Source: Macrostomum hystrix
Lineage: Eukaryota; Animalia; Platyhelminthes
DNA: 64,000 nt
Direction of reading: 5' to 3'
Assembly: GCA_950097015.1 (NCBI GenBank)
Contig: CATNEN010000019.1
Location: 153,929-217,928 of the forward strand
This document shows positions 26,670-64,000 of the stretch, one piece after another (position 1 is the first letter of the stretch; every line of letters starts with the position of its first letter). A program made the position numbers and the translations under genes. The notes beneath the pieces are model-generated. The model made no database searches and was not told where the DNA came from. It saw nothing but the letters and a program-made list of their open reading frames with translations.

Positions 26670-27425
26670 TGTTTTACCAAGTTGGGCTTATTCAGCTGAA
26701 ACTGAAAGCGTAATAGAATAGCAAAGCAGCTAGAAATTCATTTAAATCTGTTCACTAACTAAACTGTCTACAAACCAACTGTCAGTCGAGCGGAAGGGAT
26801 CGTGTTGGGATTCGATGCTTTCCAAAACATATCTATCTGAGTTGAGGCCGAAGAAGAAAACACTCAGGGCAATTATAATGCTAGAATTGCCAAGTTGAAG
26901 TTTACGTTTTATTTTTAAATAAGTCGGGTCGTGACAGACAAGCTATATATGATATAGCAGATATATAGGTATAAGCAGAGAAAGGGAGATAGAAATTTCG
27001 GAATCGGACACCTTACAATGCAATTACTCAGTAAATTGCAGACGATATTTAGATTTCAAAGTGTAGTGGTGAGAAGTAAAAGTGCAACATAAAAATTTCA
27101 CAGGACGTTAGATTGAAACCGCAAGTTAACCAGATACTACTAGAACTAGACTTTTTAAGGCTTTAGATAAAAACTGATGTTAATGTAATGTAATCTAATA
27201 CCGAGACTGATTTTCATAGCTTTATGTTCTATCAGGGGAACTTTTAAGTTAAAAAAATGAGTAAGGCTGTGCGTATAGGCAACAGATATAAGATAGTCGA
27301 GCTAGGGGTCATTCTGGATAAATGGTAACATTTCGATCTTTAAGGGTCGATAGAGAACGTTAGAGAGAACGTTACTGAATATGCAAACAAGATGTAGTAG
27401 TTTTAGCGGTACAAGATGTAGTCGA

Positions 27426-38501: not shown

Positions 38502-39500
38502 TCACTGAGAGGCTGTTGAAGTCGCCACAACCGGTGATTGGGGCGGCGGCTGCGCTGGTGAAGCTGCAGCCGAGTCAGACTGTACCCCAGACTGCTGTGG
38601 TGTCGAGTCCGAAGCCGATGTCACTGGAGCTATAGGGGGCTGCGACTGCTGCTGTTGTTGTATTTGAGACTGCGACTGAATCTGTTGATGCATCTGCGAA
38701 GCTGAAGTCTGGGGCGGTAGCATCTGATAAGAAATATTCGACTGTGGCGGCTGCTGCTGAGAATACACGGTGGGTGCGAATTGCGGGCGCATTATAGCTG
38801 CCGGCTGCTGCTGGAAATAGGCCGCGTTAGTTGGCTGCTGCTGCTGCCTAGCCGCAGCTGCAGCCGCAGCGGCAGCTGCTGCAGCGGCAGACGACCCGCT
38901 AGGCCCGACAGGGCCACCAGAGGTTGTGACACTACGAGGAGCTGGCGGTTGCTGCTGCATCATAGGTTGTTGTGGACGTTGCATCATTGCTGATTGCGGC
39001 TGCTGCATCATGGCCGGCTGCGGCTGCTGCATCATGGCCGGCTGAGGCTGCTGCAGCATGGCTTGCTGTGATTGTATCATAGATGGTTGCTGCATCATTG
39101 ATTGCTGAATCATGGCCGGCTGTGGTTGCTGCAGCAAGGCCTGTGTAGGCGGCTGCTGTTGCTGGATCATCACAGCCTGCTGTGGCTGCGGCGGCATTAT
39201 CATTTGTTGTGGTCCTGGGGTTCTCAACACTGCGCCAGGGCCTTGGGGCGGCGGCTGCATCGGTGCTTGTGCTGTTGGCTGAGATACACTATTGCTATGC
39301 GAATCAGCAATCGTCGCCAAGTATACAAGATTTCTGTGCAGTGTTTGCTGCAGTGTGGCCATCTCGTGAGTACGGCCGCGCTGCTCATACTCTAGCATTG
39401 CATTTATAAGTTGGGCATTCTCATCTAAAAGTCTTTGGATTGTTGCTGTATTAGGTGGTGCGGCTTTGCGAGCAGAAGCAGGTGAAAACGCCAGTGACAT
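38502..39500 (-). CDS. SS18: SS18/SSXT-family BAF complex subunit, intronless, 332 aa
   Basis: SNH domain IQRLLDENAQLINAMLEYEQRGRTHEMATLQQTLHRNLVYLATIADS followed by a Q/P/M-rich low-complexity region. Confidence 0.92.
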   Translation of the reverse strand: MSLAFSPASARKAAPPNTATIQRLLDENAQLINAMLEYEQRGRTHEMATLQQTLHRNLVYLATIADSHSNSVSQPTAQAPMQPPPQGPGAVLRTPGPQQMIMPPQPQQAVMIQQQQPPTQALLQQPQPAMIQQSMMQQPSMIQSQQAMLQQPQPAMMQQPQPAMMQQPQSAMMQRPQQPMMQQQPPAPRSVTTSGGPVGPSGSSAAAAAAAAAAAAARQQQQPTNAAYFQQQPAAIMRPQFAPTVYSQQQPPQSNISYQMLPPQTSASQMHQQIQSQSQIQQQQQSQPPIAPVTSASDSTPQQSGVQSDSAAASPAQPPPQSPVVATSTASQ

Positions 39501-40623
39501 TTCAGCTGGAAATATGAGTCAGAAAATGCACTTATTAAAAATCAGTATTTCTTATAATACTGATACTTTCAGTATACTTTCAAGCTTTCAAGCTTTCAAG
39601 CTCAATACTTTCAAGCTTGTGAAAGCACCCCATTTAAAATACAGTAAACACTTTGCCACTAAGTGCTTACTAGTGTATGTCTGACTCTGATATGCTTGTC
39701 TGGTGTCAAACTGAGCTGATGATATTGCTTTGCAAAAGGTTTACTACTGTAGAAATTTTAAGTGTGCTTTTACAGGCTTTTTAATGCTTCTTTTAAAAGC
39801 ATTTTCAACCTCTAAATTCAGCAGGATCAAGTATTTCACCAGATATTGTTACAAGTGCATGACACATGTCCTAGCTGCAGCTCCGAGATACTTTAGACAT
39901 AAATCAGTATAGTTATGTTAAAGATATTAAAAATCAAAGTGTGGCTAATTTGCTTCTTTGCTGCTTTTGTCACATAAAATGAAAAATCTTGGGTGCTATG
40001 GCCTTATGCTTGATCTATCTAAGTAACTGAAGTTGCACAGCTAGAAACATATATATAAGTGTTGATAATAAAGTCTATATTTTGCACTTGGCCACCTGCT
40101 TCCACAGTGGCTGAATAAATTTAGAAAATGAAAAATGTCGTACTCTAATGTTTGAAGTTCTAAAATTTGTCAATACATTATAGATACTTAAAACTTTATG
40201 CTTATGCTTGTTTGTGCTTGCATATGATAAATGCCTAAATTAAAGCTGACAACAACAATAGACTAATTTAATACTTTTAAGGAAGTATCACAAGTGATCC
40301 ATGCAGAATGCTGATAGAAATAAAGAGAGTGTAGCACACACAAGCTTCCCAGAAAATAGAGCTGCAGTTTGACAGTTTGCTACAGATGTACATTCAAAGC
40401 ATGCAATTGCTGAATAAAAGATAAGAGCTAAAAAGAGCAGAGCTGAAAATGGTTTAGGCACATTATGGGGGCACTAACTTTTTAATATACTCATAGTTAA
40501 ATTTGTTGTTTTTGAAAATCGCATTTCCCAGAAAACTTTTGGTAAAATGATTTTTTTAATGTCTTGTTAAAATGAATAAATATTTGTTATACCAAAAAAT
40601 TAAACTTTGTTTAGATATGTTCA

Positions 40624-42993: not shown

Positions 42994-44067
42994 GGGAGCA
43001 CGAGACTTGCCCGCAGGCGAACTGCCCGCCGAGATTTGCCCGCAGGAGATTTGCCCGTCGAGATTTGCCCGCCGAGGTTTGCCCGCAGAGATGTGCCCGC
43101 AGTGCATTCTGCCCGCAGGAGATTTGCCCGTCGAGATTTGCCCGCAGAGATTTTCCCGTCGAGATTTTCCCGTCGAGATTTGCCCGCAGAGATTTGCCCG
43201 CAGAGATTTGCCCGCAGAGATTTTCCCGCAATGTCGTGGGGTCCCCGACATGCACCATATAGGACTCCATGGCTTATTTACTGGATTTGTCGTTTGGTGG
43301 TTGAGCAGATCGAGGTGATAAAATCCAGGCGGCTGACATGTGAATTTGAAACAGACAGCGCTCCACCAGCTAGAGATTCCAATACCGGGACCGGGATTTG
43401 AGAGCAAACACCTGGAATTCCAATCTCAGGACTTAAAATTGCCCACCATTCAGCGGGATTTCAATTTTTCGGGATTTGCTGGGACTGAAAATGCTGGGGA
43501 TTTTATGGGAGTTGGACAGGAATATCCCGAACCCGACAATCCTGGGATTGGAAACTAGCCGGGATTTTACCATCCCTACCACCAGGCACCAGCAAAAAAT
43601 TGCTGCTACAAAAGATTATAGAACAGGCTACAGTAATTTAGCAGAAAGGAAATTTGAGGTGTCTGCAAAATGCCAAAGAAATATCTTATGCATTTGCGGC
43701 AGTAAGAGTTTCAGATTCACACGGTTGAAATCTGGCAGGTAAATAATTTTGATAAGTATAAGTCGATTTTTGCAAGATTAAAACTGTATTGCGGGAAAAT
43801 CTCTGCGGGCAAATCTCTGCGGGCAAATCTCGACGGGAAAATCTCGACGGGAAAATCTCTGCGGGAAAATCTCAACAGGCAAATCTCGACGGGCAAATCT
43901 CGACGGGCAAATCTCGACGGGCAAATCTCGACGGGCAAATCTCCTGCAGGCAGAATGCACTGCGGGCAAATCTCTGCGGGCAAACCTTGGCGGGCAAATC
44001 TCGACGGGCAAATCTCCTGCGGGCAAATCTCGGCGGGCAGTTCGCCTGCGGGCAAGTCTCATGGACC
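42994..44067. mobile_element. 1.07-kb non-autonomous DNA transposon with long TIRs made of subrepeats (Merlin-like)
   Basis: About 240-280-bp inverted arms made of GAGATTTGCCCG(C/T) subrepeats, starting with GGG; perfect 8-bp TSD GTGCTAAA (42986-42993 and 44068-44075). The superfamily is inferred from GG termini plus the 8-bp TSD. Confidence 0.85.
43371..43578. mobile_element. Small nested hAT-like MITE
   Basis: Ends TAGAGATT / CATCCCTA, GGGATT subrepeats, TSD CCACCAGC/CCACCAGG (7 of 8). Confidence 0.55.
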
Positions 44068-45283
44068 CGTGCTAAAGCTAGCTACGTTCAACTGCCATAC
44101 TTTTAAATCAACCTTCCGACCTACTGAGACAGCGGCACCTGCGGCTGGCTGGGCAAGTGATCAGGGCTGAAGTCTACTGCCCTAAGCCACTGCAGGATGT
44201 GCTTCTATGGACTCTGCAGGGACCTTGCAAGTGTGGACAGGGACAATCAGCCCATTTATATTGACCTGCTCTTCTCCGACACATGCGCCCTCAGCCAGAC
44301 TTACGGAGTGAAGCATGTCTGCAAACTAGCCTTTAAGCACGCATTTTGATGCTTCCCCCTTTTCTTAGGCCACTGTGTGGCCAGCAGGTTGACTTTTTTT
44401 ACTATCTCAGAAACAAATTCTAAGAAAGCCATACAAAAAATTTGGTAGCATTGAATATTGAATATTGAAATTATTGAGATTCAGATATATTTGGATGCAC
44501 ACAAAAAGGCCATAGGTAGTAAGACCCACTCTATAATAAAAAGTATAAAACTTGATAAATGGTAAGAAGGGCAACAGGCTTGATATGCACAACTCATGCA
44601 CACATATCATCCGAATCCTAATGTACATTTTGCACCAAACCCTCCCTATCTAGAGCCATCCTTAGGCAATACCAGAGCCATCCATACCAATCTGAATCTT
44701 AGGCTTGCAGACTAGAACATTTTTTTCTTTTTGAATGTTGGCTTAGACGTTAGAGACTAGAAACCTGAAAAACCTAGAAACCAAGAAACATAAACCTTAA
44801 ATTAAGCACTTAGGGCCTATACCAATGTCTAAAGGCTAAAAATACTCTGACATATATAATAAGTATCCAACAAACTCATAGAGCACACCTTTAGACAAGC
44901 TAGGGCCTATAATTAGCAAATCCTTGGCAAAAAAATTTTAAAACTGAGTTTGAATCTGACACAGATACTTTTGCCTCAAGAATTGATTTTTTTGTTTTCT
45001 TAAGTGAAAGTTAAAATTTATAATGAAAAATATGCTTGAACCATTGTCATTATGTAATTAAAACATAAAATATTTGATAGAACAAAATGGCAGCAGTAAA
45101 AAAGTAACAAAATATGCATCGGAAGGAAATGCCTGCAGACCCCAACAGTCGGAAGATTTTGCTCGCAGACCCCTACCCAATTTTAGGATTTCCGTATGAA
45201 CAATTGGGAATTCCGCTACTCATGGCCCTCAAGGCCACACTCCAGACCCAACCGTCTATGGCTCTAGCATATTAACTGCATTG

Positions 45284-45438
45284 GCAAAATCTTCCGGAAG
45301 GAATTGCTTCTATGTAAATCAATAGGACGCAAAATCTTCCGGAAGGAATTGCTTCTATGTAAATCAATAGGACGCAAAATCTTCCGGAAGGGATTGCCTC
45401 AATGTAAATCCATAGGAAGCAACATCTTCCGGAAGGAA
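45284..45438. repeat. 45-bp tandem repeat, about 3.5 copies, with a CTTCCGGAAG palindrome
   Basis: GCAAAATCTTCCGGAAGGAATTGCTTCTATGTAAATCAATAGGAC repeated. Confidence 0.92.
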
Positions 45439-45466
45439 GTGCATGCATACGTATCGCAAAAAGGCT

Positions 45467-45602
45467 GAATGACCTTTTTTTTGATCTCCCTAGTGTATTT
45501 CTAAAAATAGAACACCGTAGGTGGTCATTTCGCGAAAATACGGACGCATATACCAAATGACCTTTTTTTTGATCTCCGTAGTGTATTTCTATAATTAGAA
45601 CA
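45467..45602 (+). repeat. Left direct-repeat pair (~48 bp x2)
   Basis: AATGACCTTTTTTTTGATCTCC(C/G)TAGTGTATTTCT...AGAACA at 45467-45514 and 45556-45602; recurs in the same orientation at 58246-58273 (partial) and 58301-58348. Confidence 0.88.
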
Positions 45603-45884
45603 GCTAAGCCTATGTCTTTTCGCAATCGAGCACTGCGGAGCATGTAGTCGTGTTTGCGAAAGTGCTAATATATATCACTGTGTCCTTCATGCACCATATT
45701 TCATTGTACTTTCGCGAAAATACCTTGCCCTGTATTAACATTGCTACTTCACTTTAAGCATTTTGCGAAAACATCATCTAATGTAACTAAAGTACTTAAA
45801 GTGCTTTTGCAAAAAAATACTGTTCTACCTTCGTTTGAATACGTATCCGTATTTCGCGAAAATACAAACAATAATAGTAATCAG

Positions 45885-46143
45885 CAGTACTATCTCTATT
45901 CCCTCAATAAATCTTATTGTTCTGTTAGACTGAATTATGAAATACGTATCCGTATTTTCGTTACAGTTTTTTTCGCCAAAAGTGACTCATCAATATAAAT
46001 AACCATATAACACACCAATCATTTGCAAGTGATCTGGCATGCAGGTCTAAAGCATTCATTTTTAGTAGCAGTGGCTCGGGTTCGAATCCCAGTCGGCACT
46101 ACGCATTTTTCTCAATTTAAAAAATCTGCTAATAATTTACTAC
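45885..46143 (+). repeat. Left arm of a diverged ~260-280-bp inverted repeat (partner 56200-56478)
   Basis: By-eye alignment of CTAACAGA..ATAA.ATTTATT.AG.GAAT, AATATAAATA.CCA.ATAACA, the tRNA-like cassette and AAAAA.C.GCTAA.A.TTTACTA blocks to the reverse complement of 56200-56478. Confidence 0.75.
46028..46100 (+). ncRNA. tRNA-like Pol III cassette (degenerate cloverleaf, not a canonical tRNA)
   Basis: Box A TGGCATGCAGG, perfect box B GGTTCGAATCC (46079-46089), T5 terminator at 46106-46110; acceptor and anticodon stems pair poorly. Confidence 0.6.
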
Positions 46144-46484
46144 TAATTACTACCTCTGGAATAATCAACAATAATTTAAGTGCCTTTTCAACATATAGAT
46201 AGACATTCAGAAATCAATTAATTATTAGTGTTTATGTTAATATGCTGTTCGAAACTAACTACTCTACTATGAGTAGACAATATAGCAACGTTAAATTTAT
46301 TATGAGTTCAATATTGTGGTTTTTCGCCATAGACCAACCTTGAATGATAGTTTATGTGATTAAACTGTCGTACGGGTCACGATAGCAGCTTGAGTTAGAA
46401 GCCGAGCGCGCTCGCTTAAGTAATCTGTGTAAAATTTCTTCTGTTATAAGCAGTTTGCAACAGCATCAAATAATAACCAGCGAA

Positions 46485-46826
46485 ATGGATACGTGCCCAG
46501 TCTGCAAGGCTTCAATTCGGAAGACGAATGTTGTAAGGCATTTTATTACAAATCATTCAGACTTCGTTTCGAGTTTTGATTGGAGCACAATTCCGGAGGT
46601 TCGACGACCCGCAATGACGGCATCGTATGACATCAAGGCAAGGACTGTATGGAAGATCATCCGGTTACGTCGGGATGGATCCAATCCAGATTTGTCTTAT
46701 TGTCAATACTGTGGCAAATGTGTTCAGCAGCTCAGTAAACACATTACGAGGTCATGCAAGCGTAAACCGACAATTACAGAGGCAGCAAATGCAACCCGTT
46801 CGTCAAGTGACAGCGACGACCTTTAG
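46485..46826 (+). CDS. Small two-zinc-finger protein (C2H2 plus C2HC); may splice onto the acidic ORF ending at 47173
   Basis: CPVC-x12-H-x4-H and CQYC-x9-H-x4-C motifs. The frame 46838-47173 is open (Ser-rich, DEEGDDGE acidic run, YRTRSGR) and could join through a short phase-2 intron. AATAAA near 47385. Confidence 0.55.
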   Translation: MDTCPVCKASIRKTNVVRHFITNHSDFVSSFDWSTIPEVRRPAMTASYDIKARTVWKIIRLRRDGSNPDLSYCQYCGKCVQQLSKHITRSCKRKPTITEAANATRSSSDSDDL

Positions 46827-47579
46827 TCGTGTTCTAGTGTTCTAGTCGACCTTTAACGACGGTTAGTCCTAGATGTTCAACAACGGACAACACCGAGTCG
46901 ACAAAGCCGGCCATCGATTCAGCAACACCATCGCCTATTTCGTCTACATCGTCTAGACGAAGCAGTCTTAGTCAACCGCCGATGTTTGGAGCATCGGCTG
47001 GACAAGGCAACGTTCACGACGATATCGACGAAGAAGGTGATGATGGTGAACAACAGCACGTCAGCAATGACAATGAGACCAGCTCGGATTCTGAGCTACT
47101 CATGGTTCGTCGAACGGAATACAGGACGCGATCTGGGCGCCTGATCAGTTCGAGAACTAGACTGGACATCTGAATGCTCATATTGTCCCAGTCGTGTCAC
47201 CTGACTTAATATGTGCTGATTGTCTGATTTGCCAAACTTATCAATTATCAATTGTGTCAATTGTGATACCCCCACTAATACCCGTCCCTTTACAACCGAG
47301 AATCTAATATGTTCTGTTTGTTGCTCTCTTATATATTGTTAAGATGCTAATGATTGTCAACACTGTGATTATTTCGTAAGTAAATAAATAAATTAACAAA
47401 TGAAATCATTTGATTATCATCTGATTAAACTAAGATTAAACTATTCTCGTTTTCTTAAAAGCCGCAGATACACGAAAAAATCATTCGTGATTATTGACAA
47501 TTAGCAGAAATATACTAAATTTGTCGATGGTAAAAAAAGTACAAGTCACTTTGTCTGAGAATACGTACGAGCTATCTAC

Positions 47580-50500
47580 GTTCGCGAAAATACCACAATA
47601 TATGTAGCCATGCACACTACTTCAATAACTTTTGCAAAAATACCGCCAACTACCTTTGTTTAATAGCATATCAGTATTTTCGCGAAAATACCATAATATG
47701 TAGCCATGCACACTACTTTAAGAACTTTTGCAAAAATACCGCCAACTACCTTTGTTTAAAGCATAGCAGTATTTTCGCGAAAATACCATAAGATGTAGCC
47801 ATGCACACTACTTTAAGAACTTTTGCAAAAATACCGCCAACTACCTTTGTTTAATAGCATAGCAGTATTTTCGCGAAAATACCATAAGATGTAGCCATGC
47901 ACACTACTTTAAGAAATTTTGCAAAAATACCGCCAACTACCTTTGTTTAAAGCATATCAGTATTTTCGCGAAAATACCATAAGATGTAGTCATGCACACT
48001 ACTTTAAGAACTTTTGCAAAAATACCGCCAACTACCCTTGTTTAATAGCATAGCAGTATTTTCGCGAAAATACCATAATATGTAGCCATGCACACTACTT
48101 TAAGAACTTTTGCAAAAATACCGCCAACTACCTTTGTTTAATAGCATAGCAGTATTTTCGCGAAAATACCATAAGATGTAGCCATGCACACTACTTTAAG
48201 AAATTTTGCAAAAATACCGCCAACTACCTTTGTTTAAAGCATATCAGTATTTTCGCGAAAATACCATAAGATGTAGCCATGCACACTACTTTAAGAACTT
48301 TTGCAAAAATACCGCCAACTACCTTTGTTTAAAGCATAGCAGTATTTTCGCGAAAATACCATAAGATGTAGTCATGCACACTACTTTAATCACTTTTGCA
48401 AAAATACCGCCAACTACCTTTGTTTAATAGCATAGCAGTATTTTCGCGAAAATACCTTAACATATAGCCACGCATATAACCTACTTTAATAACTTTTGCA
48501 AAAATACCGCCAACTACCTTTGTTTAATAGCATAGCAGTATTTTCGCGAAAATACCTTAACATATAGCCACGCATATAACCTACTTTAATAACTTTTGCA
48601 AAAATACCGCCAACAACTACCTCTGTTTAATAGCATATCAGTCTTTTCGCGAAAATACCATAAGATGTAGTATAGCCATGTGCAGTACTTCAATAAAGTT
48701 TTGCAAAAATACCGCCAACAACTACCTTTGTTTAATAGCATAGCAGTATTTTCGCGAAAATACCTTAAGATATAGCCACGCACACAACTTCAAGAACTTT
48801 TGCAAAAATACCGCCAACTACCTTTGTTTAATAGCATAGCAGTATTTTCGCGAAAATACCTTAACATATAGCCACGCATATAACCTACTTTAATAACTTT
48901 TGCAAAAATACCGCCAACTACCTTTGTTTAATAGCATAGCAGTATTTTCGCGAAAATACCTTAACATATAGCCACGCATATAACCTACTTTAATAACTTT
49001 TGCAAAAATACCGCCAACTACCTTTGTTTAATAGCATAGCAGTATTTTCGCGAAAATACCTTAAGATGTAGCCATGCACACTACTTTAATAACTTTTGCA
49101 AAAATACCGCAAACTACCTTTACTACCTTTGTTTAATAGCATAGCAGTATTTTCGCGAAAATACCATAAGATGTAGCCACGCACACTACCTACTTTAATA
49201 ACTTTTGCAAAAATACCGCCAACTACCTTTGTTTAATAGCATAGCAGTATTTTCGCGAAAAATACCATAAGATGTAGCCACGCACACTACCTACTTTAAT
49301 AACTGTTGCAAAAATACCGCCAACTACCTTTGTTTAATAGCATAGCAGTATTTTCGCGAAAATACCATAAGATGTAGCCACGCGCACTACCTACTTTAAT
49401 AACTGTTGCAAAAATACCGCCAACTACCTTTGTTTAATAGCATAGCAGTATTTTCGCGAAAATACCATAAGATGTAGCCACGCGCACTACCTACTTTAAT
49501 AACTGTTGCAAAAATACCGCCAACTACCTTTGTTTAATAGCATAGCAGTATTTTCGCGAAAATACCTTAAGATATAGCCACGCATATAACCTAATTTAAT
49601 AACTTATGCAAAAATACCGCCAACTACCTTTGTTTAATAGCATAGCAGTATTTTCGCGAAAATACCTTAAGATGTAGCCATGCACACTACTTTAATAACT
49701 TTTGCAAAAATACCGCAAACTACCTTTACTACCTGCGTTTAATAGCATAGCAGTATTTTCGCGAAAATACCTTAACATATAGCCACGCATATAACCTACT
49801 TTAATAACTTTTGCAAAAATACCGCCAACTACCTTTGTTTAATAGCATAGCATGCAGTCTTTTCGCGAAAATACCATAAGATGTAGTCATGCACACTACT
49901 TTAAGAACTTTTGCAAAAATACCGCCAACTACCCTTGTTTAATAGCATAGCAGTATTTTCGCGAAAAATACCATAATATGTAGCCATGCACACTACTTTA
50001 AGAACTTTTGCAAAAATACCGCCAACTACCTTTGTTTAATAGCATAGCAGTATTTTCGCGAAAATACCATAAGATGTAGCCATGCACACTACTTTAAGAA
50101 ATTTTGCAAAAATACCGCCAACTACCTTTGTTTAAAGCATATCAGTATTTTCGCGAAAATACCATAAGATGTAGTCATGCACACTACTTTAAGAACTTTT
50201 GCAAAAATACCGCCAACTACCCTTGTTTAATAGCATAGCAGTATTTTCGCGAAAATACCATAATATGTAGCCATGCACACTACTTTAAGAACTTTTGCAA
50301 AAATACCGCCAACTACCTTTGTTTAATAGCATAGCAGTATTTTCGCGAAAATACCATAAGATGTAGCCATGCACACTACTTTAAGAAATTTTGCAAAAAT
50401 ACCGCCAACTACCTTTGTTTAAAGCATATCAGTATTTTCGCGAAAATACCATAAGATGTAGCCATGCACACTACTTTAAGAACTTTTGCAAAAATACCGC

Positions 50501-52503
50501 CAACTACCTTTGTTTAAAGCATAGCAGTATTTTCGCGAAAATACCATAAGATGTAGTCATGCACACTACTTTAATCACTTTGCAAAAATACCGCCAACTA
50601 CCTTTGTTTAATAGCATAGCAGTATTTTCGCGAAAATACCTTAACATATAGCCACGCATATAACCTACTTTAATAACTTTTGCAAAAATACCGCCAACTA
50701 CCTTTGTTTAATAGCATAGCAGTATTTTCGCGAAAATACCTTAAGATGTAGCCATGCACACTACTTTAATAACTTTTGCAAAAATACCGCAAACTACCTT
50801 TACTACCTTTGTTTAATAGCATAGCAGTATTTTCGCGAAAATACCATAAGATGTAGCCACGCACACTACCTACTTTAATAACTTTTGCAAAAATACCGCC
50901 AACTACCTTTGTTTAATAGCATAGCAGTATTTTCGCGAAAATACCATAAGATGTAGCCACGCACACTACCTACTTTAAGAACTTTTGCAAAAATACCGCC
51001 AACTACCTTTGTTTAAAGCATAGCAGTATTTTCGCGAAAATACCATAAGATGTAGTCATGCACACTACTTTAATCACTTTTGCAAAAATACCGCCAACTA
51101 CCTTTGTTTAATAGCATAGCAGTATTTTCGCGAAAATACCTTAACATATAGCCACGCATATAACCTACTTTAATAACTTTTGCAAAAATACCGCCAACTA
51201 CCTTTGTTTAATAGCATAGCAGTATTTTCGCGAAAATACCTTAAGATGTAGCCATGCACACTACTTTAATAACTTTTGCAAAAATACCGCAAACTACCTT
51301 TACTACCTTTGTTTAATAGCATAGCAGTATTTTCGCGAAAATACCATAAGATGTAGCCACGCACACTACCTACTTTAATAACTTTTGCAAAAATACCGCC
51401 AACTACCTTTGTTTAATAGCATAGCAGTATTTTCGCGAAAATACCATAAGATGTAGCCACGCACACTACCTACTTTAATAACTGTTGCAAAAATACCGCC
51501 AACTACCTTTGTTTAATAGCATAGCAGTATTTTCGCGAAAATACCATAAGATGTAGCCACGCGCACTACCTACTTTAATAACTGTTGCAAAAATACCGCC
51601 AACTACCTTTGTTTAATAGCATAGCAGTATTTTCGCGAAAATACCATAAGATGTAGCCACGCGCACTACCTACTTTAATAACTGTTGCAAAAATACCGCC
51701 AACTACCTTTGTTTAATAGCATAGCAGTATTTTCGCGAAAATACCTTAAGATATAGCCACGCATATAACCTAATTTAATAACTTATGCAAAAATACCGCC
51801 AACTACCTTTGTTTAATAGCATAGCAGTATTTTCGCGAAAATACCTTAAGATGTAGCCATGCACACTACTTTAATAACTTTTGCAAAAATACCGCAAACT
51901 ACCTTTGTTTAATAGCATAGCAGTCTTTTCGCGAAAATACCATAAGATATAGCCACGCATATAACCTACATTAATAACTTTTGCAAAAATACTGCCAACT
52001 ACCTTTGTTTAATAGCATAGCAGTATTTTCGCGAAAATACCTTAAGATATAACCACGCATATAACCTAATTTAATAACTTATGCAAAAATACCGCCAACT
52101 ACCTTTGTTTAATAGCATAGCAGTATTTTCGCGAAAATACCTTAAGATGTAGCCATGCACACTACTTTAATAACTTTTGCAAAAATACCGCAAACTACCT
52201 TTACTACCTGCGTTTAATAGCATAGCAGTATTTTCGCGAAAATACCTTAACATATAGCCACGCATATAACCTACTTTAATAACTTTTGCAAAAATACCGC
52301 CAACTACCTTTGTTTAATAGCATAGCAGTCTTTTCGCGAAAATACCTTAAGATGTAGCCATGCACACTACTTTAATAACTTTTCCAGGTCACAGCCGCAA
52401 ACTACCTTTACTACCTGCGTTTAATAGGATAGCAGTCTTTTCGCGAAAATACCTTAAGATGTAGCCATTCACACTACTTTAATAACTTTTGCAAAAATAC
52501 CGC
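47580..52503 (+). repeat. Tandem array of ~50 units of ~96-100 bp with higher-order block duplications
   Basis: Consensus TTTTCGCGAAAATACCATAAGATGTAGCCATGCACACTACTTTAAGAACTTTTGCAAAAATACCGCCAACTACCTTTGTTTAATAGCATAGCAGTA; variant units recur in the same order in blocks. Confidence 0.97.
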
Positions 52504-52886
52504 TATTTACTTTCGGATAAAAGTCGTTATTTTATTTTCGCGATAACACCTGTAAATGAATTTTATTAATTAATACTTTGACACTTTGCATATACCTTCG
52601 TTTGAATGCGTAATACTATATATAGTAATAAGAAATATGATTTTTTTGCAACAGAAGTAGCAATTACCTACTTCACAACAATAAAAGCTCAAAACTGAGC
52701 ATATAAATTGATTTTATTTGTATGACTAATTATAAAATTGCATACAAAAACAGTATGAAACAGTAAAAAATATAAAAAAAACAGCTGAAAGACTGACTGA
52801 AGGACCGAGTAAAAATATAGTCGATAAAATAGCAGCATGCAGGCAGTTTGGTGTAAAAAAACCTGCTAACAGCACCGTCTTGTCGC

Positions 52887-55534
52887 TCATACTCGCCGGT
52901 CCGGGTGATCGCCAAACACATTGCGTATTGGGTGGCATTGTCCATCGCATTGGTAGTCGGCACTGAGGGAATGACCAATGAAGATGGCAACTACCGGACG
53001 CTTGTGCCCATCAGGTGTCGGTTCTAATCGGCGCTGAAAGTCCATCGAATACGCACTGACCGGAGCATGCCCAGCAAGCACTAACAGTCCGATTGAGCCT
53101 AGAGACGTGTCGAATAGCCTTGTATTTAGCATTGACTTCAAAAGTGTCTCCATTGACCAACGAAGTAGTGTGCACATGACTTCAGATGTGTCATCAAACA
53201 GTTGCGGGCGTAGCTCGTCAATAAACATGGCAGTGTGTATAGTCTCGCAGAGCTTGTCAAACATAAACGTGTTAGACCGCTTCTGCACCTGGATATTCAG
53301 CACTTTCGTAGAACCGAGATGGCTTTGCACAGAGTGGGTCTTCCCAACGCCAGACGGGCCGTATAGATAGACGACACCAGTTGGCAATTGCAACGCGCTG
53401 CACACAGCCTTTACAGTTGGGCACACGTTGGTGGCGGCGGCGATCAGCCGGGGAACATGAGCGACGGCGGCATCAAATACTTGAACAGCAGTAGCAGCGG
53501 AAGCAGCAACATCAGCAGCAGCAGAGACCTGTTGGATGGTGTTGTGTTGTTAGGTATGTTCGCATACAATTAATTAATTAATTGTCCAAAAGTAATAATT
53601 ATTTGAATTAAAACAACAGCAAAAATTCAATGATCAATACTCGTACGTGTGCTAAAAAATGTCATGTATTATAATATTTTGCATACCTCCAGCTGAGTAG
53701 GCAAGGTCGTCCTCGCATAGTCGGCTGTTGCAGCATCATCAGCAGCGGCGGCGGCGGCAGCGGCAGTAGGGCGACAGTTTTGGCAACCAGCTAGCACCTC
53801 TGTTGCTATTACGCGTTTCATCTGAGTCACCTTAAAGTAATCGCTGAGCTCTTGTCTGACACGAAAGTGTTCGAACATGAAGCCACTATCTAGCAAAGGC
53901 TCAGTAGATGACGTCTCATGAGCAGCAACCCAGCAAAAGGCCTTGGTCAGCAAGCTGCACTCTTGAGTAGAAACGCGGAAAAGAGCTGGAAACTCGTCCG
54001 TACTGGTAACTAGCTTAATTGCACTTGACGCACTGCGTACACCAGACACTGTCATTCTACACATTGTAGGATGCAGGTAGGCCGAAGCTTCCGCAGATTC
54101 CATCAAAAGGGCATGCAGTCCGCAGTAAACAGTGTAACCATCTTCTGGTTGGCGCAGGTTCAGGAACATCAGCAAACCATTGGGATGATTCGGAGCTCCT
54201 AAACATTCACGGATTGACATGTTGTATTTCTGCTGACGACGCGCTCGGATTTCTTCGCTGGTCAGCATGTCAACCTGAATACATGATGTTGCACCGATGG
54301 CAACTGTGCACATGGAGCTACCAATTCATCTTCTAGAAACGCCTTGAATTTTTCCACATCGCTCGAGATGAATGCAATCTCTATAAGATGTAGCGTCCTT
54401 CTAGTCATAAGAACCGACCTGCCCTCTGCTGTTAAAGAGGCGTAGTCGGTAATTGGAGCTCGAGGACATAGCCGTAGAAGTGGTGATGTCGAACGACACA
54501 ACGCATATTCATCGGCTATCGGAGCAAATGCCACGCCACCAACTTGCTGCTGCTGCTGTTGCCGCTGCTGCGGTTGTTGATCTCGCTGATGATGCTGCTG
54601 CTGCGATTGCTGCCGTCGTCCCGACTGTTGCGCTGTTGATTCAAAAGCGTCGACATACGCTGGAGAAAATACTGCGAGAGCTGGTTCATCATCATCGGAT
54701 ATTGTCCCATTCTCGATGACAGACATTGCCGGTGTAGAGCGAGGCGCATAATCTGGCGAAGTCGGACAGGCACCAAGTGCGGCACTATTTTTAGGAATAG
54801 TAGACTCGCCATTTACGCGCAATAATTCTGCCACCTCTGTTTTGTACTTATCATCAACTAGCTGCGATGACAAGGCTGAACTATTAGAAGCCGTCAAAAC
54901 AGGGGCAGTGTTCGACTCTACATTGTCTGTATTGCTCGTCCACTCGTCCACAATCTCCAGCTGTACGTCGTCTGCTAGCAAGTCCGTCCGCTGAGTCATC
55001 TTCAGATGATAGCACTTTAGGCGTGGACTCTATGCGATTAGCATGGTCGCCGGCGCCACAATTGATTGTGCGGCAATAACCAGAGGCTGTCGCATGGCTA
55101 CCAAAGATCCAACGCCAGTGTCTTCAGCATCAGACGACGATGTAGTGCTAGACGAAGCATCCAAGTCGACAACTACACGCGTCCGCTTGCGTAGAGTCGA
55201 TCGGACACGTCGACGCTTCTGAACTGCGGTTGTAATAACAGTTCGCTGCTGCTGCTGCTGCTGCTGCTGCGGTTGCTGTTGCTGCTGTACTACTGCTGCA
55301 CGGCGGGGAACGTAGAAGGCAGCCGACGCCCTGCCAGCCGTTCCTGCCCAGTGCTGCAAAAGATGCCGATGCTGCTTGCCCACACGGTCTAATTAAGTCG
55401 CCAGTAGGACGATTGGTTGACTGCTCAGATCTAAAGTAGTCCACGATCCTAGTCTGGCGTAGACCATTAGCATCCGGTGTAGCAATGCTGGCATCCACAC
55501 GAGCCTTCTTTCCACGGCCACGAAATGCTGACAT
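52887..55534 (-). CDS. Spliced ~790-aa putative replication protein: PIP box, basic NLS-like stretch, Q/A tracts, unknown central domain, C-terminal SF3-type (AAA+) helicase
   Basis: Phase-0 GT-AG introns at 55101-55030, 54321-54275 and 53686-53529 join four open frames. Walker A YGPSGVGKT (53360-53337), Walker B AMFIDE, Arg-finger-like DFQRRL. QTRIVDYF at 55456-55433. The link between the first ORF (55534) and the next frame needs a 3n+1 intron or a frameshift and is unresolved. Confidence 0.65.
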
Positions 55535-56199
55535 TTCAAACTTGAAGTCGAGGCGTAGAAATTAACTCGTAAATGTGGTTGATCGCTCGGCTCGGTCAGT
55601 CAGTCAGTCAGTCGGTCACAAAGTATCTGTTAACCGCGCTCCGTCTTAGATAGCTCACTTTTGCGACTGTACTGGACTGTAGTTCTAGGTCTGGCTATAG
55701 ACCAAACTTTTTCGCGAAAAATCATGTATGAATATTATTCAGCAAAAAAAATTTTGCCACTGCGCAGATACTAATCGATGAAATGTCTATGTCTAATTTC
55801 GCGAAAATACCATCTAAACTATCACAAGTATATAGACTAGCCATGTTAATTCAATTACTTTCGCAGTATACTTTACTACTTCAGGTGCAAGCAGCACTAC
55901 TTCAAGTACTATTGCGCAACTATACATTTAATATTGTTTGAAGACACATTTGTACTTTCGCGAATATATACCGGCTGCTGTAGCCACACAATCTCAGATT
56001 TATTTGCATAAGTACGGCAGTAAAAAGACAAGACACTTCGTCTGAAAAATTTTCGCTAAAAGACATGTGTCCCAAATGAAAGTAAAGGCATTATCAAAAG
56101 AAAGTAACTGCCCTATTTGAGCAAAAGTACGTAATAATAATGGGGATCCACAAAAAGTGGGGATTCGAATATAAAAAATAAAAATTTTAATTTTCATTG

Positions 56200-56478
56200 A
56201 TAGTAAAATGTTAGCTGCTTTTTTAATTAAAATTAAAACGTAGGGCTGACTGGGATTCGAACCCGGGCCCCTGGTATTAGAGAGAAATGCCTTAGACCTG
56301 CACGCCAGATCACTAACAATCAAATTAGTTGTTATCTGGCTATTTATATTTATTTTCTTTCGCATGTTCGAGTTTTAATGACGTTTGTCTGCAAATGGTG
56401 AAATCTTGATCACTAATACAATTTTTTTTTCTAACAGACTGATAATATTTATTCAGCGAATATAGAGAGTAGTAGTTC
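56200..56478 (-). repeat. Right arm of the diverged inverted repeat
   Basis: Reverse-complement similarity to 45885-46143; lies upstream of the helicase gene. Confidence 0.75.
56242..56314 (-). ncRNA. Second tRNA-like Pol III cassette, facing inward
   Basis: Minus strand AGTGATCTGGCGTGCAGGTCTAAGGC...CCGGGTTCGAATCCCAGTCAGCCCT followed by TTTT; perfect box B. Confidence 0.6.
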
Positions 56479-56794
56479 AGGAACGTTTTGCAAAAATACT
56501 ACCCTTACCTTTGTTTTGGAAACATATCAGTATTTTTGCGAAAATACTTTAATTCCTGAATATGCATAGACAATAAATACACTTTTCGCGAAAATACCAG
56601 CATTTGAGTCTATTCACAGCCAAGTCAGTTTACGAATCGACCTCCATCGCATATAGCCCTCTGACATCCGTAATTCCATATAAACTAGAGTTTACGGACT
56701 TAGAGAATTTTATCATGTCAGTGATAAAATTTTCGACCGTCCCCAGAGCTTAGTTGGTGTGGCTGGTGGAGTAAATGCAGGTATTATATATATA

Positions 56795-57171
56795 CTCTAA
56801 AGAAAGGTGCGCGAGCTGTTTTTTCGCAACTTGACTTCGTCGTCGTCGTCGGCATATGGGGGCTAGTATATAGCCGGGCTGGCTAAACCCCGGGCGATTC
56901 ATCGATTCTATTTTTAGCCTACGGCGCACCTTTCTTAAGAGTATATATATACAAGCTGACTCGTGTGTATTTAAATGGCAGCCTATTGAAGTCTATGGGG
57001 CACGCAAGCCAGTATATACTCTTAAGAAAGGTGCGCCTTAGGCTAAAAATAGAAACACCATGCATTTTCGGTCATCTATTATAGTAACTAGTCGTCATCA
57101 AGCCCGATCTAGATATAATCTCCGTCATATTGCCTCCAGCGAAAATATACAGCGCGCACCTTTCTTTAGAG
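56795..57171. mobile_element. Mirror-image pair of ~150-bp TA-flanked MITEs (56795-56941 and 57019-57171)
   Basis: Each has TIRs CTCT(A/T)AAGAAAGGTGCGC and sits in a TATA context; the shared TCTATTTTTAGCCTA end shows the two are inverted relative to each other. Confidence 0.75.
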
Positions 57172-57300
57172 TATATACTAACTGGCTCGTTCTATCCCGC
57201 CCCAATCTCACCACACTATTTAAGCCTTGGGACGGTCGAGAATTTACAGATTGTAAATTCTCTAAGTCCATAAACTCTTATAATTGGAGTGCTGCAGCTA

Positions 57301-57425
57301 GGGTGTGGTGTGGTGTGGTGTGTGGTGTGGTGTGGTGTGTGGTGTGGTGTGGTGTGTGGTGTTGGGTGGGTGGTGTGTGGTGTGGTGTGGTGTGTGGTGT
57401 GGTGTGGTGTGTGGTGTTGGGTGGG
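57301..57425. repeat. (GTGTG/GTG)n GT-rich microsatellite
   Basis: Directly visible. Confidence 0.95.
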
Positions 57426-58060
57426 TGGATGCAGAGTGCAGGTGCAGGTTGGGTAGGTGGTGCATGGTGTCTCACTCTCATATCCTCCCTTCACTCTGTC
57501 CTAGCTTCCTCCCCTATACCTTCGCTTTCCTGATCCCCTTCCTTTAATCTGATGATCCTCTCTTCACTCTCCCTCGCTTTCACTTTCCTCCTGTACTATC
57601 CTCCAAATATGTTTTCTCGAAAGTAAGACATCGATCAGTACAATGAATTAATAATTACAATGAACCAGTCGTACGAATTTGGGTGGGTGGATGCAGAGTG
57701 CAGGTGGTTGGGTAGGTGGTGGTGTCTGACTCTCTGCATATCCTCCCTTCACTCTGTCCTAGCTTCCTCCCCTATACCTTCGCTTTCCTGATCCCCTTCC
57801 TTTAATCTGATGATTCTGGATTCAGGATTCTGGATTCTGATTCAGGATCTGATGATCCTGATCCTCTCTTCACTCTCCCTCGCTTTCACTTTCCTCCTGT
57901 ATACTATCCTCCAAATAATTTTTCGCGAAAGTAACACATCAGTACAAATCTACAATCTGTGCAGTCAACCTACTTTTGCTTTCCTCCCCTTCCTTCGATC
58001 TGATCCTCTCTTCACTCTCCCTCGCTTTCACTATCCGCCAACTATGTTTTCGCGAAAGTT
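57419..58060 (+). repeat. ~260-290-bp tandem duplication (two full copies and one partial) of a pyrimidine-rich unit
   Basis: GGGTGGATGCAGAGTGCAGG...CCTCCCTTCACTCTGTCCTAGCTTCC...CTTCACTCTCCCTCGCTTTCAC repeated at ~57419, ~57682 and partially at ~57985. Confidence 0.85.
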
Positions 58061-58245
58061 ACACGTCAATAAATGGTACCAGAGTGCTTTTCAGTTGAGA
58101 TCAGTTCGAAGAAACTGAAGCATCCAAAGCCAAAAACCAAAGCCGAAATCCAAATTTGCAGCTTCTTCTAGCTGCAACTCACTGACTAGCCAGTTTCTGC
58201 ACTGCTATAGCTACTACTTACAGCAGGCGCATGCGTAGCTGAAAA

Positions 58246-58348
58246 GACATTTTTTATCTCCTTAGTGTATTTCTTGCACACGTCTATGGCTGTAAAAGCC
58301 GAATGACCTTTTTTTTGATCTCCGTAGTGTATTTCTAAATATAGAACA
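58246..58348 (+). repeat. Right direct-repeat pair
   Basis: GAATGACCTTTTTTTTGATCTCCGTAGTGTATTTCTAAATATAGAACA (58301-58348) matches the left repeats; CGTCTATGGCT is also shared (45254 vs 58281). Confidence 0.88.
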
Positions 58349-58989
58349 TTTTATAAAGGCTATCCCAATTAGGGTCGTCGTCTCTGGGGAAAACTCGCAC
58401 CGATTTAGAATACACGTACAACAGAGGTCCGTTTTGGTCTTGCTGGGGCCTTGGCTGGGGCTTGGCTGGACCAGACACCCCTTTGCCTTGACCAGACCCC
58501 CCCTTTCAACATTTTAGGAACAAAATGTATTAAAAATTTATAAATATAGGCCTATTATACAGAAATATAATTTATGTTCCTAGGGTTCATATAAACACTA
58601 AAACAGGACTATAATGGACTACAGTGGGACCAACCCAAGGTAGTCATTTTTTAATTTCTTTTTTTTAATCACATTGGGAGCTTTAGGGCTACTGATAGGC
58701 CTATTAAGTTACAATTCATTTTAATTAAGGCCCTAACTTATTTTAGAAAGCCTAAACACTCAGAAAAAATGAAAATTAGTTCCACACAAAAAGCAGCTAG
58801 GCAAACAGCTTAGAAACTTTGTCCGACTCGGAATATTCCGACACTTATTCCGACATCGTAGGTTAATGTACGAGCGCTACATTACCTGTCAGAATATTCC
58901 GACAAATAGGCCTATTCCGACTCGAAATTGCATGCATACATCTAATGAGCTCTCAGACAGTTATTCCGATTCGAAATTAACTGTGGGAA

Positions 58990-60169: not shown

Positions 60170-62070
60170 CTAGCAAGTTTTGCCACCCTTCGGGGAGCAG
60201 AAATATTTTTAATTCGTACAGTATATACTTTTTAGCAGCTGCACGCTCGTATTTTCAGCTTTTTTAGAAGCAACAATGATACCCCAGTTGACAATGATCC
60301 CCCAGTTGACAATGATCCCCCAGTTGACAATGATCCCCCAGTTGACAATGATCCCCCAGTTTACCATGATCCCCCAGTTGACGATTATCCCCCCGTTTAC
60401 CATGATCCCCTATTTGATGATGACTCCCCAGCTGACAATGTTCCCCAGTTGAATTTTTATATTAGCTGCTTTTGTAGAAAATTGATAAGAACAACATAGC
60501 TCAGGTTTAGCCATGATTCAAACTCTGGTTTAGCCATGATTCAGACTCTGGTTTAGCCATGATTTAAGCTCTGGTTGAGCCATGATTCAAGCTCTGGTTG
60601 AGCCATGATTCAAGCTCTGGTTGAGCCATGATTCAAGCTCTGGTTGAGCCATGATTCAAACGCTGGGTTAGCCATAATTCAATTTCAAACTCTGGTTTAG
60701 CCATGATTGAAACTCTCGTTTAGCAATGATTCAGACTCTGGTTTAGCCATGATTCAAACTCTGGTTTAGCCATGATTTAAGCTCTGGTTTAGCCATGATT
60801 CAAACGCTGGGTTAGCCATGATTCAGACTATTGTTTTGCTAGGCAAAAGTGAATTATAAGTAATCATAGTAATTATCTCGCCAGTGGGGTTGACACAGCT
60901 ATGCACATTTGGGTGAGAAATTTCTTATCAGTACGCTCACCTAACAAAACTGGCTCTGATGCAATCATTCAAATTGGCACTGGAGCCTCACTGTGCACAA
61001 GTTGAATAAATGAATCCATTGGAAAAGCCTATGTAAACCAGTTAATCCCCTTGGCAATGGAATTAAGCTTAATAAAAATACGTGTACTGATTCAGGACCA
61101 TTTGACATATTTTGGTGAAGGAATTTTGAAAATCGGTCGAGCCGTTCGGAAGATTGTTTGATTGCAAACATACAAACAAAGATACATACATAAATAAAAT
61201 ATTTTTTGTTGCAGTTCTGAATCTGATAACGCCTGCAGCTATGCTGAAAAATTCTTTCCTTAGTTTTAGTATTGAATAAAACTTGCTGCTTCACTCGAAA
61301 ATACTTATATTCTTTTCTGAGAGCGAGTACAGTAATAATAAAGCTAACAAACATCTGCTTCGAGAGTACCTAACCAAAAGCGCTTATTATTTATACTCGA
61401 ACCAAAAAAATTGCCAATAAAAATACTAATAAACAGTAACTTACGTTTTTAACTGTTGATGATAGAAGATTTGAAGAAAAAGAAGCAGTAACAAAGCTGA
61501 TGCTGAATTTGGATCTGCATTCTGCAAAATCGAAGTCGAGACAAGGTTTGACAATAGAAAGGCTGCAGTTTTATGGATAGAAAGGAGGAGGAGAGGTCTC
61601 GCTAGCATTGAGCATCATAAAAGCCCAATCATGAAATCTGCTATGTACTCGTACGTCTGAAATCACTCAATCAGCCAAGAGACAAATTTATAAACGCACG
61701 TACGGGTCGAAAAGCATTGACGCAATCGCATTCAATTGAGAGTATCGGGCCCTGTTCTGTGCTATACCAATGCACGCGCGGGCGAGAAAAAGCACCGATG
61801 CAATCTAATAAAACTTACAGTGCCCGGACCTATTCCAATTTAACCTTGTTTGGCCTCCAATTGAAAGCAATAGGAAAACTCGTTTTTCGAATATTTAATA
61901 TTGTTAGCATTGAAGCAGACTAACGAAATTTTCAAGGTCTCATGCCAGTAAAATTTGGCATGTTTAGCAAAAAACGCGATCAAATTTGGTTGAGGCATTT
62001 AGCCTGTGTATCGAAATTCCACAGACAGACAGACAGACAGACAGACTTTAGAGATTTATATATAGTTGGA
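60170..62070 (-). mobile_element. Non-autonomous Helitron with minisatellite arrays
   Basis: 5' end TCCAACTATATATAAAT..(GTCT)n at 62070; 3' hairpin CTCCCCGAAGGGTGGC then AAAACTTGCTAG|T ending at 60170; same 20- and 23-bp arrays as 32990-34054. May be two fused copies (a second 5'-like block near 61200). Confidence 0.72.
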
Positions 62071-64000
62071 CTAGCAAGTTTTGCCCCCCTCCGGGGAGCA
62101 CAAATATTTTTAATTCGTCCAGTGTATACTTTTTAGCAGCTGTATTTTTTTAAGCTACAATGATGGATGGAGGATGGAATGGAGGATAGCAATTTAGCCC
62201 CCCGTTCGGGGGCACATTTTACAACATGGTGTAAATAGCAATTCAGTGATTTGAGCGAGCAGTATACAATTCGGACTCAATTGTGTTAAAGTACGAAAGC
62301 TAGGCCTTTTGACATTGATAGCTTTCAGCAAAATTTTATTCAATTCCCTCTCGTCGTGACTCAGAAGCGGACAGTCGCATGGCTGCTTTAGGTAAAAACC
62401 GATTGACATTGACAACATTGACAAAGCATCAACATTGACAAATGATTAAAAAAATCGATGCAAGTGGATTGCAACTTAATTGTTTATAATGAGGTACGGT
62501 TCTAGTCATCTTTTGTTACAAAATACAAACTGTCTGCTTCCGTTTTGCATTGGCGTCTATCCATCAGGGATTTTTGTTAACCGAGAGGGAGGCCCTTCCC
62601 TGATGCAGCAGCAAGCAAATCATAAATCAGGAACCTTAAAAATTCATTTGCGAATTGCGTCCTTGAGATTTGAATAGAAAAATGCTTGCTGCTTAGAGAC
62701 CAAGGCAGTCACCAAGTAGAAAAATGGGCAGATAACATTAAAATAGTATAGAAACAATAGCAAAGTTTACTGAATTGGACTTCGACGAAAAAACAGCACT
62801 TTACGAAAAACTGTCCCTTGAAGACGGAAGTCTAAACATTGAAAGCAATTGGAAGCATGTGGGCCAATGAATTCGCTGTCATCGTCGATTGACGGCATGT
62901 CTGTGCGGACAGGTGTAAAAAAATGTCCGTTAAAGACAAGTTTATAAACATTGGAAGCATGTGGGCCAATGAATTCGCTGTCATCGTCGATTGACGATTA
63001 AAACGGGATATTTTTAACGGGCACATTTTAGCTTTGGATTAGGCTTACATTCCATTCCTAAACCACGTGGAATTGTTTATGAGTAGCGTTTATGAGCTCC
63101 GTTTCCAATTGTACATGATTGCTTCCCAAAAATTCAGCTCTCTGTACGAGAATGAGCTATCCCACTGACATTTACCGCTGATGAAATCAAGGGCACTCCA
63201 ACGATAAGTTTCAGAAACTGTTGGTCAGCCTAATCTTCAGAAAGCACCTCTGGGTACACAATGTTTCTCGTCTTGTTACCGGAAATCCGGATGCGAACAT
63301 TGGCTGCATCTTTGGCCCGAGACAGAGCGGTGTACAGCTGGCCGTGGCGAAGCAGCCTTCCGCCAAGTCGATGCCCACGGTCTCCAGAGACTGGCCCTGA
63401 GCTTTGTGAACCGTCAGGCAGAAGCTGGCCCGGACGGGAAAACTGCAGCCTCTTGAAGCACACTGGCAGGTCCGCATTGTTCGGCTGTAGCGGAATCCGG
63501 GGCAGCAGAATCTCGTCACCAGAGAATTGGCCTGCCGCAACTTTGCACCGCAGCACATTGTCCCCCCAGTGCCAGGACAATCAGTCGCGTTCCGTTGCAC
63601 AGCCGTGGCGGGTTGATGTTTCGCAGAAGCACCACCGGCATGCCCACTTTGAACTTAAGCAGGTGCTTCGGCAAGTTCGGTGCCTCCAATCGGTTGAGCA
63701 GCTCAGGAGGGAAGTGCGTGGCAGAATCCTCATCAGCCACGCTGTCGATCGACTTGATCTCCCGCATGCTGCCCGGGAACATGGCCAGGCACTCATCGTT
63801 GATCGCATCAACGGCCTCGTTATACGGAGCCAAAATTACTCTGCTGGCAAAGTAGGCGTCTCTAGCGTCAGTTGCTTCGAACGAAGGGTAAACGAACTCG
63901 ATCAGGTCCTTCAGGGAGGCACCTGCCGGCATCAGGATCTCAGGCGGAAGCGAAACGTTGCCATCAGAGTCCTCCTCAATAGAACCTGAGCCGATCTGTG
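62071..64000 (-). mobile_element. Helitron 3' portion with a frameshifted PIF1-like helicase C-terminus
   Basis: ILAPYNEAVDAIN, LKFKVGMPVVLLRNINPPRLCNGTRL, FCLTVHKAQGQSLETVGIDL, HGQLYTALSR, TRNIVYPEVL* (stop at 63230), spread over three frames. 3' hairpin CTCCCCGGAGGGGG plus CTAG at 62074-62071. Confidence 0.92.

Follow-up and report, generated by a model that had tools for sequence, protein, structure and literature searches.

A stretch of roughly 13.4 kb in the genome of the flatworm Macrostomum hystrix appears to be one multi-copy, capsid-less element with a superfamily 3 (SF3) DNA helicase gene of the virus Rep type. It lies in a 64-kb window (contig CATNEN010000019.1 of assembly GCA_950097015.1, positions 153,929 to 217,928; coordinates below are window positions, with strand in brackets). 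We suggest that the element maintains itself by its own replication and reaches new chromosomal sites via extrachromosomal copies, and give this reading as a whole a probability of about 0.55. Nine public sequencing runs from three studies match the right half of the stretch, two of them with at least half of its words, and four (X1, X2, X3 and X5) were compared with the window.

A spliced helicase gene of the virus Rep type

The unit contains two convergent ORFs (open reading frames) with poly(A) signals (AATAAA at 47383/47387 on the plus and at 52718 on the minus strand), as a preliminary description of the window had proposed. The minus-strand gene (55534–52887) is spliced. Its helicase exon (52887–53528, -) carries SF3 motifs and a C-terminal His/Cys motif, with Walker A at 53360, Walker B at 53231, motif B at 53142 in a neighboring frame and an arginine finger at 53039; the motif C region at 53081 lacks the asparagine. 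A GT-AG intron of 158 nt (53529–53686, -) precedes this exon. X5 does not cover 53555–53761, contigs of X3 stop at 53530 and 53685, and two related proteins, P0002 and P0005, align across the intron into the upstream exon, which adds a helical linker with a CxxC motif. The upstream coding region (53687–55534, -) encodes a motif resembling a PCNA-interacting protein (PIP) box (55456), a basic tract, poly-Gln and acidic tracts, a folded domain (~54550–53960) without family assignment and the CxxC helical linker (53785). The frame of the window copy is broken near 55400, 55030, 54300, 53160 and 53090; the last three breaks are probably assembly errors, because none of the four runs agrees with the window there. 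A 47-nt intron considered near 54300 was dropped, the four runs all having a sequence other than the window's at that site.

Taken alone, the window exon matched only sub-threshold P-loop families (E ≤ 1). [quoted passage not shown] A search of 1.84 billion representatives yielded four relatives and a profile a fifth; two are named Macrostomum lignano proteins and three are metagenomic, with 30–44% identity to the window helicase and 29–76% among themselves. The M. lignano relatives are 42–44% identical to it, and one resides on a 220-kb contig. P0001, an M. lignano gene model named as a G-protein-coupled receptor (GPCR), is a helicase relative fused to a seven-transmembrane fragment, probably the product of a wrong join in a model that covers a further copy. 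Walker A is present in four of the five relatives (one is a fragment), and the Walker B pattern, the motif B lysine and the arginine finger in all five; in the window, motif B stands in its neighboring frame between two breaks. When a model of P0002 (pLDDT 54) was compared with the PDB, Rep40 of adeno-associated virus, papillomavirus E1 and the Rep ATPase of porcine circovirus 2 (PCV2) were among the top 11 matches (best E 1.8e-3). Against viral structures it gave 49 matches at E ≤ 0.001 (best 1.5e-5), the named ones all Rep or NS1 except one. Atlas features, these fold matches and the motif set thus support the SF3 assignment of the preliminary description, the predicted SF3 fold being that of the relative P0002 rather than of the window protein.

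Other searches with the gene were less productive. PDB sequence searches returned generic P-loops only and PHROGs nothing useful. Word-index searches found no match to the helicase exon among longer proteins and none to the upstream domain; no relatives were seen among metagenome contigs by protein, in prokaryote genomes or, in a weak test, in five scans of viral contigs. Plasmid and phage matches were absent or due to chance, the only match at E 0.6 (L006) being bacterial DNA. The upstream domain matched no Pfam family at E ≤ 10 and scored at best 0.77 in the Atlas. No HUH/HUQ or YxxK motif occurs in its coding frames (54560–53690), a result that the frame breaks of the window copy keep from being final. 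By eye, a stretch at ~54150–54000 may show the spacing of Rep motifs II and III but none of the catalytic residues that those motifs carry.

The plus-strand candidate gene is a 113-aa ORF with two zinc-finger-like motifs (46485–46826, +), which matches only sub-threshold zinc-finger families, and a low-complexity ORF follows (46838–47173, +). The unit holds no further long unique ORF. In agreement with the preliminary description, no transposase, integrase, reverse transcriptase, PIF1 or capsid family was found among seven ORF stretches at E ≤ 1.

The right half behaves as one multi-copy unit

X1 and X2 cover all 30 bins of the right half. In X1, 26 of 28 element bins (two CAG-tract bins omitted) have depths of 447–1726 (median 886), compared with 113 in a flank bin (7.8-fold less) and a median of 82 in 14 unrelated CAG-bearing contigs (~10-fold less); in X2, the depth is 15 versus 0.24. 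The helicase gene, right inverted arm, hairpin and terminal repeat share one depth level in X1, and the core (52902–54453) is a single unbranched contig in both X1 and X2. This evenness argues against separately dispersed repeats, and for the right half we therefore retain the earlier proposal of one multi-copy unit rather than independent repeats that happen to be co-located.

At its 5' end (55300–55507), the gene divides into two types (376 and 465), its coding core being nearly uniform. X1 also holds a form with a 552-nt deletion (55095–55648; depth 94) that removes the helicase start and is likely a non-autonomous derivative. In X1, one contig (side 34) joins 56545 to 52531, as might be expected of a sub-circle of 4 kb or of an array with a different end. 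In X5, the exon bins are covered, and depth is zero over the bin of the intron and upstream of 55625. X3 and X5, from two studies, both end at 55610–55617, and the other end lies at 52641. No run recorded as RNA was listed among those with the element, and X3 and X5 are called RNA-like from their behavior; on this guess, the helicase gene appears to be expressed, a weak hint.

Terminal repeats and edges

The preliminary description had a ~48-bp repeat doubled at each end. Self-comparison upheld the left pair (45460–45602, +), with 55-nt copies at 45460–45514 and 45548–45602 (85%), while the right pair (58250–58348, +) proved to be one 55-nt copy (58294–58348, 93%) plus a 25-nt core (58250–58274). 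All four cores of this repeat in the window lie inside the unit. A loose end in X1 before 58294 was set aside, being similar to the left-end repeat copies.

The true ends had been placed at 45460 and 58350, but contig depth and junctions move the right boundary to ~58519–58526. X1 depth falls from 3234 in 58316–58522 to 113 in 58523–58700, one X2 contig departs from the window behind 58526, and one X3 contig joins the right flank from 58519 to ~1340 unrelated letters. At this read-defined junction lies the right copy of a 10-bp direct repeat, GAACAAAATG (58518–58527, +), whose left copy (45080–45089, +) is a candidate left boundary; 10 nt were reached at 11/1460 and 61/8900 control positions (0.7%). 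At a second right junction, in one X2 contig, 8 letters of the 10-mer are retained before the sequence diverges. These retained letters make a random duplication less likely than a motif of the termini or of the target, as far as one contig can tell. Judged from the window alone, the left edge may lie at 45090 or at 45460.

Between the 10-mer copies and the terminal repeats lie a left outer segment (45090–45459), whose membership is uncertain, and a right outer segment (58349–58517) of greater read depth than the interior. A CAGACCCC..ATTTTAGGA motif, a pattern picked after sight, occurs at 45166–45188 and again at the right end, and a 45-bp unit with the palindrome CTTCCGGAAG is present in 3.5 copies at 45284–45442. 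No terminal inverted repeat connects the outer ends (best local score 23). Inward of the right terminal repeats, a GTGTG-type simple repeat is followed by a 260-bp segment in duplicate, which contains two TTTCGCGAAA cores (57302–58071, +).

Array, inverted arms and branched hairpin

The ~50-unit array of the preliminary description is real. It spans 47581–52503 (+; 49.7 copies) in units of 95–107 bp, each with TTTCGCGAAA and TTTTGCAAAA palindromes, and has 50 cores, 28 distinct units among 49, a mean identity of 90% and a 2.18-kb higher-order repeat. Scattering of the core over the flanks was likewise borne out, since all 57 TTTCGCGAAA matches of the window fall in 45528–58057 (chance 0.10). 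Degenerate array-like units occur at 45600–45880 (+; mostly in array orientation, scores 77 and 68) and 56470–56600 (+; array orientation, score 83), against a control maximum of 36, and adjoin the outer side of both inverted arms. TTTCGCGAAA is presumably similar to an E2F site. In metagenomes, the array motif matched five loci, none with an array or helicase, and one 38-nt match was judged to be chance.

The diverged inverted repeat is also present (45989–46142 / 56201–56353; 78% over 155 nt, E 3e-26) and can be aligned outward to ~45885 and ~56470. Both the left arm (45885–46147, +; box B at 46080) and the right arm (56196–56470, -) carry box A and box B together with a TATA-like block and a T-run, resembling an RNA polymerase III (Pol III) promoter cassette. 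Of the 15-nt blocks compared between the arms, those with the TATA-like sequence, box A and box B are the best kept (13, 14 and 15 of 15); six others reach 9–11 of 15. Of the earlier claim that the arms bear tRNAs, the cassettes stand but the tRNA genes do not: ARAGORN found 0, Rfam no tRNA at E ≤ 1, and the missing cloverleaf, with neither acceptor stem nor anticodon arm, led us to reject that reading. We also rejected an origin as heads of short interspersed nuclear elements (SINEs), because a SINE head should stand out in depth and the cassettes, at 761–947 in X1, do not exceed the interior; moreover, the inverted arm takes in upstream TATA-like sequence.

A nested palindrome of 614 nt (56675–57288), absent from the preliminary description, holds four copies of a 24-bp core. 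Its predicted fold (-142 kcal/mol, z -20) was equaled by none of 20 shuffles, and because the core copies alternate in orientation it can form either one long stem or two shorter ones. This hairpin is a likely candidate for the origin of replication. The CRESS nonanucleotide, in the pattern we take it to have, does not occur in it. A 12-mer, CTAAAAATAGAA, is common to the first terminal repeat (45501–45517) and both inner hairpin arms (57043–57059); its three window copies all lie at these sites, which may share a binding activity.

Relation to known elements

The preliminary description had pointed to a planarian extrachromosomal element, and the likeness is supported: PEVE of Girardia tigrina and PIVE of Schmidtea mediterranea (Repbase) have SF3-type Rep-like ORFs and inverted repeats, and PIVE is integrated and repeated (PMC3198968). 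In 10.1101/551184, two elements of this kind are listed as the sole DNA ones in planarians up to 2019. The M. hystrix element resembles them as a flatworm virus-like element with an SF3-type Rep-like ORF and inverted repeats, although its arms are internal and 78% alike, and PEVE was compared by description rather than by sequence. It differs in that Parvo_NS1 and PPV_E1_C, the domains found there, were not matched here at E ≤ 1 / 0.5, and in its single spliced helicase gene, zinc-finger gene, 5-kb array and box A/B arms. PEVE has a layout with two unique regions. Comparable layouts are those of the Epstein–Barr virus oriP/EBER region, with array, palindromic origin and box A/B units, and of the yeast 2-micron plasmid, with inverted repeats around unique regions; these are analogies of layout.

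With CRESS Reps and pCRESS plasmids, the latter capsid-less and mostly integrated (PMC6668415), the element shares the nearest helicase clusters and the order of linker and SF3 domain. In contrast to them, it has no intact HUH motifs that we could see, no capsid, no hairpin nonanucleotide and no sensor-1 asparagine, measures 13 kb and encodes a long disordered N-terminus. For want of a capsid gene it does not count as a CRESS virus. In papillomavirus E1 and polyomavirus large T, too, the SF3 helicase follows a domain that lacks the HUH signature motifs, and E1 was among the top fold matches; these viruses combine SF3 with an inactivated HUH domain and rely on host replication (PMC6668415). The element, however, lacks capsid genes, is chromosomal and multi-copy, and has helicase features nearer CRESS Rep, with its upstream fold unproven; the likeness is confined to an inferred logic.

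Replitrons and Helitrons are eukaryotic elements derived from Rep replicons, with short terminal direct repeats or hairpins (PMC10288648). Replitrons have a Y1 HUH domain and no helicase, and Helitrons a Y2 HUH domain with an SF1B (PIF1) helicase, whereas the present element has an SF3 helicase and no detected HUH; it is neither a Helitron nor a Replitron. Of the hallmarks of cut-and-paste DNA transposons, neither terminal inverted repeats nor a DDE transposase was found. As for a target-site duplication, the 10-bp direct repeat is present, yet the second junction (one contig) shares 8 of its 10 letters. Parasitic flatworms have NS1-like endogenous sequences, Macrostomum going unmentioned in the part of that study available (PMC5013282), and PMC11071296 does not mention flatworms. 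We found no description of this element in the literature searched; the Repbase and Dfam libraries, which may hold it, and subscription journals were outside the search.

A replicon model and its alternatives

Under the replicon reading, the spliced gene would yield an initiator-helicase whose N-terminal PIP-box-like motif recruits PCNA and host polymerases, and which is loaded onto the branched palindrome of 614 nt. E1/large-T-like unwinding would be a more likely mode of replication than nick-primed rolling circle, since an intact HUH motif was not seen. The TTTCGCGAAA array could be a protein-binding platform, occupied by the zinc-finger protein of the element or by an E2F-type factor of the host and serving retention or S-phase expression. 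The mirrored box A/B cassettes may bind TFIIIC and yield short Pol III transcripts or act as insulators between the two genes. Free copies might arise by recombination across the terminal direct repeats and re-enter at short AT-rich AACAAAAT-like sites through repair by the host or with a nuclease provided in trans. Insertion is the weakest link of this mechanism, with no enzyme in sight.

Several observations weigh against the replicon reading. No nuclease, integrase or recombinase was found, which leaves the insertion step without an enzyme. Helicase activity is not assured, because the sensor-1 asparagine is replaced by Gly-His in the window and in four of five relatives (only P0003 has it), and this residue, on the list of SF3 hallmarks, is required for the PCV2 Rep ATPase (PMC8406172). 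The P0002 model has no Foldseek match in the PDB at E ≤ 0.001, and the single-sequence model of the upstream domain (pLDDT 34; best Z 4.0 and best E 0.03 in fold searches) leaves that fold unassigned. For the left half, both linkage and junction are read from the assembled window, the read contigs belonging to the right half, and none of the contigs listed bridges this window's own right junction. Neither a circle junction nor a strand-flip or inversion joint was among the 15/24 joints and 24/287 loose ends displayed. Contig depth is not copy number, so that an estimate of about ten is rough, and the run types (DNA or RNA) are guesses. Finally, the outermost right 170 bp are ~4-fold deeper than the interior in X1. 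The outer end is therefore common to a more abundant repeat, as would fit cargo within another repeat, and of the possibility that the end repeats belong to an unrelated dispersed repeat, which the preliminary description had named as contrary evidence, this outermost part alone was borne out.

A bolder version of the replicon reading, which we hold only tentatively and consider rather doubtful, is that the element belongs to a class of selfish DNA not described in animals before. It would descend from a CRESS Rep, would have shed capsid and nicking, and would now be a double-stranded, PCNA-coupled replicon. That state would then have been gained independently of papilloma- and polyomaviruses, the element would shuttle between episome and chromosome in a flatworm rich in stem cells, and hairpin origin, 50-site retention array, zinc-finger tether and twin Pol III cassettes would form an oriP-like kit.

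Among the alternatives, the one that survives best, though unlikely, is a rolling-circle or rolling-hairpin transposon whose upstream domain is an active but unrecognizable HUH nuclease. Like Replitrons and Helitrons, but equipped with an SF3 helicase, it would nick the hairpin or termini and insert its copies at AACAAAAT-like targets. The helicase is nearest to CRESS Rep and NS1, which have HUH domains, a low-confidence model shows a helix-strand-strand-strand order at the expected place, and the 8-mer kept at the second X2 junction is what site-specific insertion would leave; short terminal direct repeats and hairpins are typical of HUH transposons (PMC10288648). The motif and Pfam searches of the upstream domain, with the caveat of the broken frame, speak against it.

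Somewhat less probable is that the Rep-derived block is passive cargo in a non-autonomous DNA transposon, represented by 45090–45459 and 58349–58517, which is moved by a host transposase in trans and for which the 10-mer is the target-site duplication. The deeper right outer segment and the 10-bp repeat at both edges, rare in controls, are as this explanation would have them. The outer ends share no terminal inverted repeat, however, another copy (one contig) retains the 8-mer, which is unexpected for a random duplication, and the origin-like hairpin and apparently expressed helicase are left unexplained.

We regard as improbable a mainly free, PEVE-like episome whose copy in the chromosome is a rare integrant or was joined in assembly through the shared end repeat. 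The coding core is near-identical across pooled copies, PEVE was reportedly not found integrated (PMC3198968), and the X3 contig links the right flank to other letters while no listed contig bridges the window junction. Against this, related M. lignano helicases sit in chromosomal context (the 220-kb contig and the GPCR-like fused gene model), and the same 10-mer at both edges would not be expected from a mis-join.

Rep-only satellites and helicase-plus-zinc-finger transpovirons exist, but a satellite or segment of a virus with its capsid encoded elsewhere, such as the Polinton-like virus whose capsid/ATPase block lies at 291–5466, is very improbable here, as self-comparison detected no sequence shared between element and block and five scans of viral contigs, a weak test, gave no relative.

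Sequence around the element

The Polinton/adintovirus-like block (291–5466) includes an A32-type packaging ATPase (1045–1887, E 5e-6), a double-jelly-roll capsid-like ORF (3233–4645, E 4e-5) and neighbors. A non-long-terminal-repeat retrotransposon reverse transcriptase lies at 13631–15429 (RVT_1, E 2e-28), and an element resembling a miniature inverted-repeat transposable element at 42999–44063, with 230-bp inverted ends, 93% alike, each made of 14-bp tandem units. By eye, an N-terminal ORF of Helitron-like type, containing 23-aa repeats and without a Pfam match, lies at 30427–31881 and a PIF1-like C-terminal fragment at 63211–63654. Related 18-bp (33235–33583 / 60273–60452) and 23-bp (33002–33090 / 60500–60836) tandem arrays in opposite orientation suggest another dispersed element. 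Host genes recognized by eye in 20764–28754 and 38502–39518 include kelch, GPN-type GTPase, proteasome ATPase and SS18-like genes.

Implications

The element is real, coherent and apparently undescribed, a variant among flatworm capsid-less SF3 virus-like elements. To our knowledge, natural nuclear plasmids are not known in animals, nor do SF3 helicases count among the usual engines of transposons. It also shows a possible source of a 5-kb satellite with higher-order repeats. An SF3 element of this kind, capsid-less, transcribed, recently amplified and with several related helicase lineages in the genome of one flatworm, would be a tractable case of the virus-to-plasmid or virus-to-transposon transition hinted at by PEVE and PIVE, and perhaps also an example of a Rep turning into an E1/large-T-like replicon along a route of its own.

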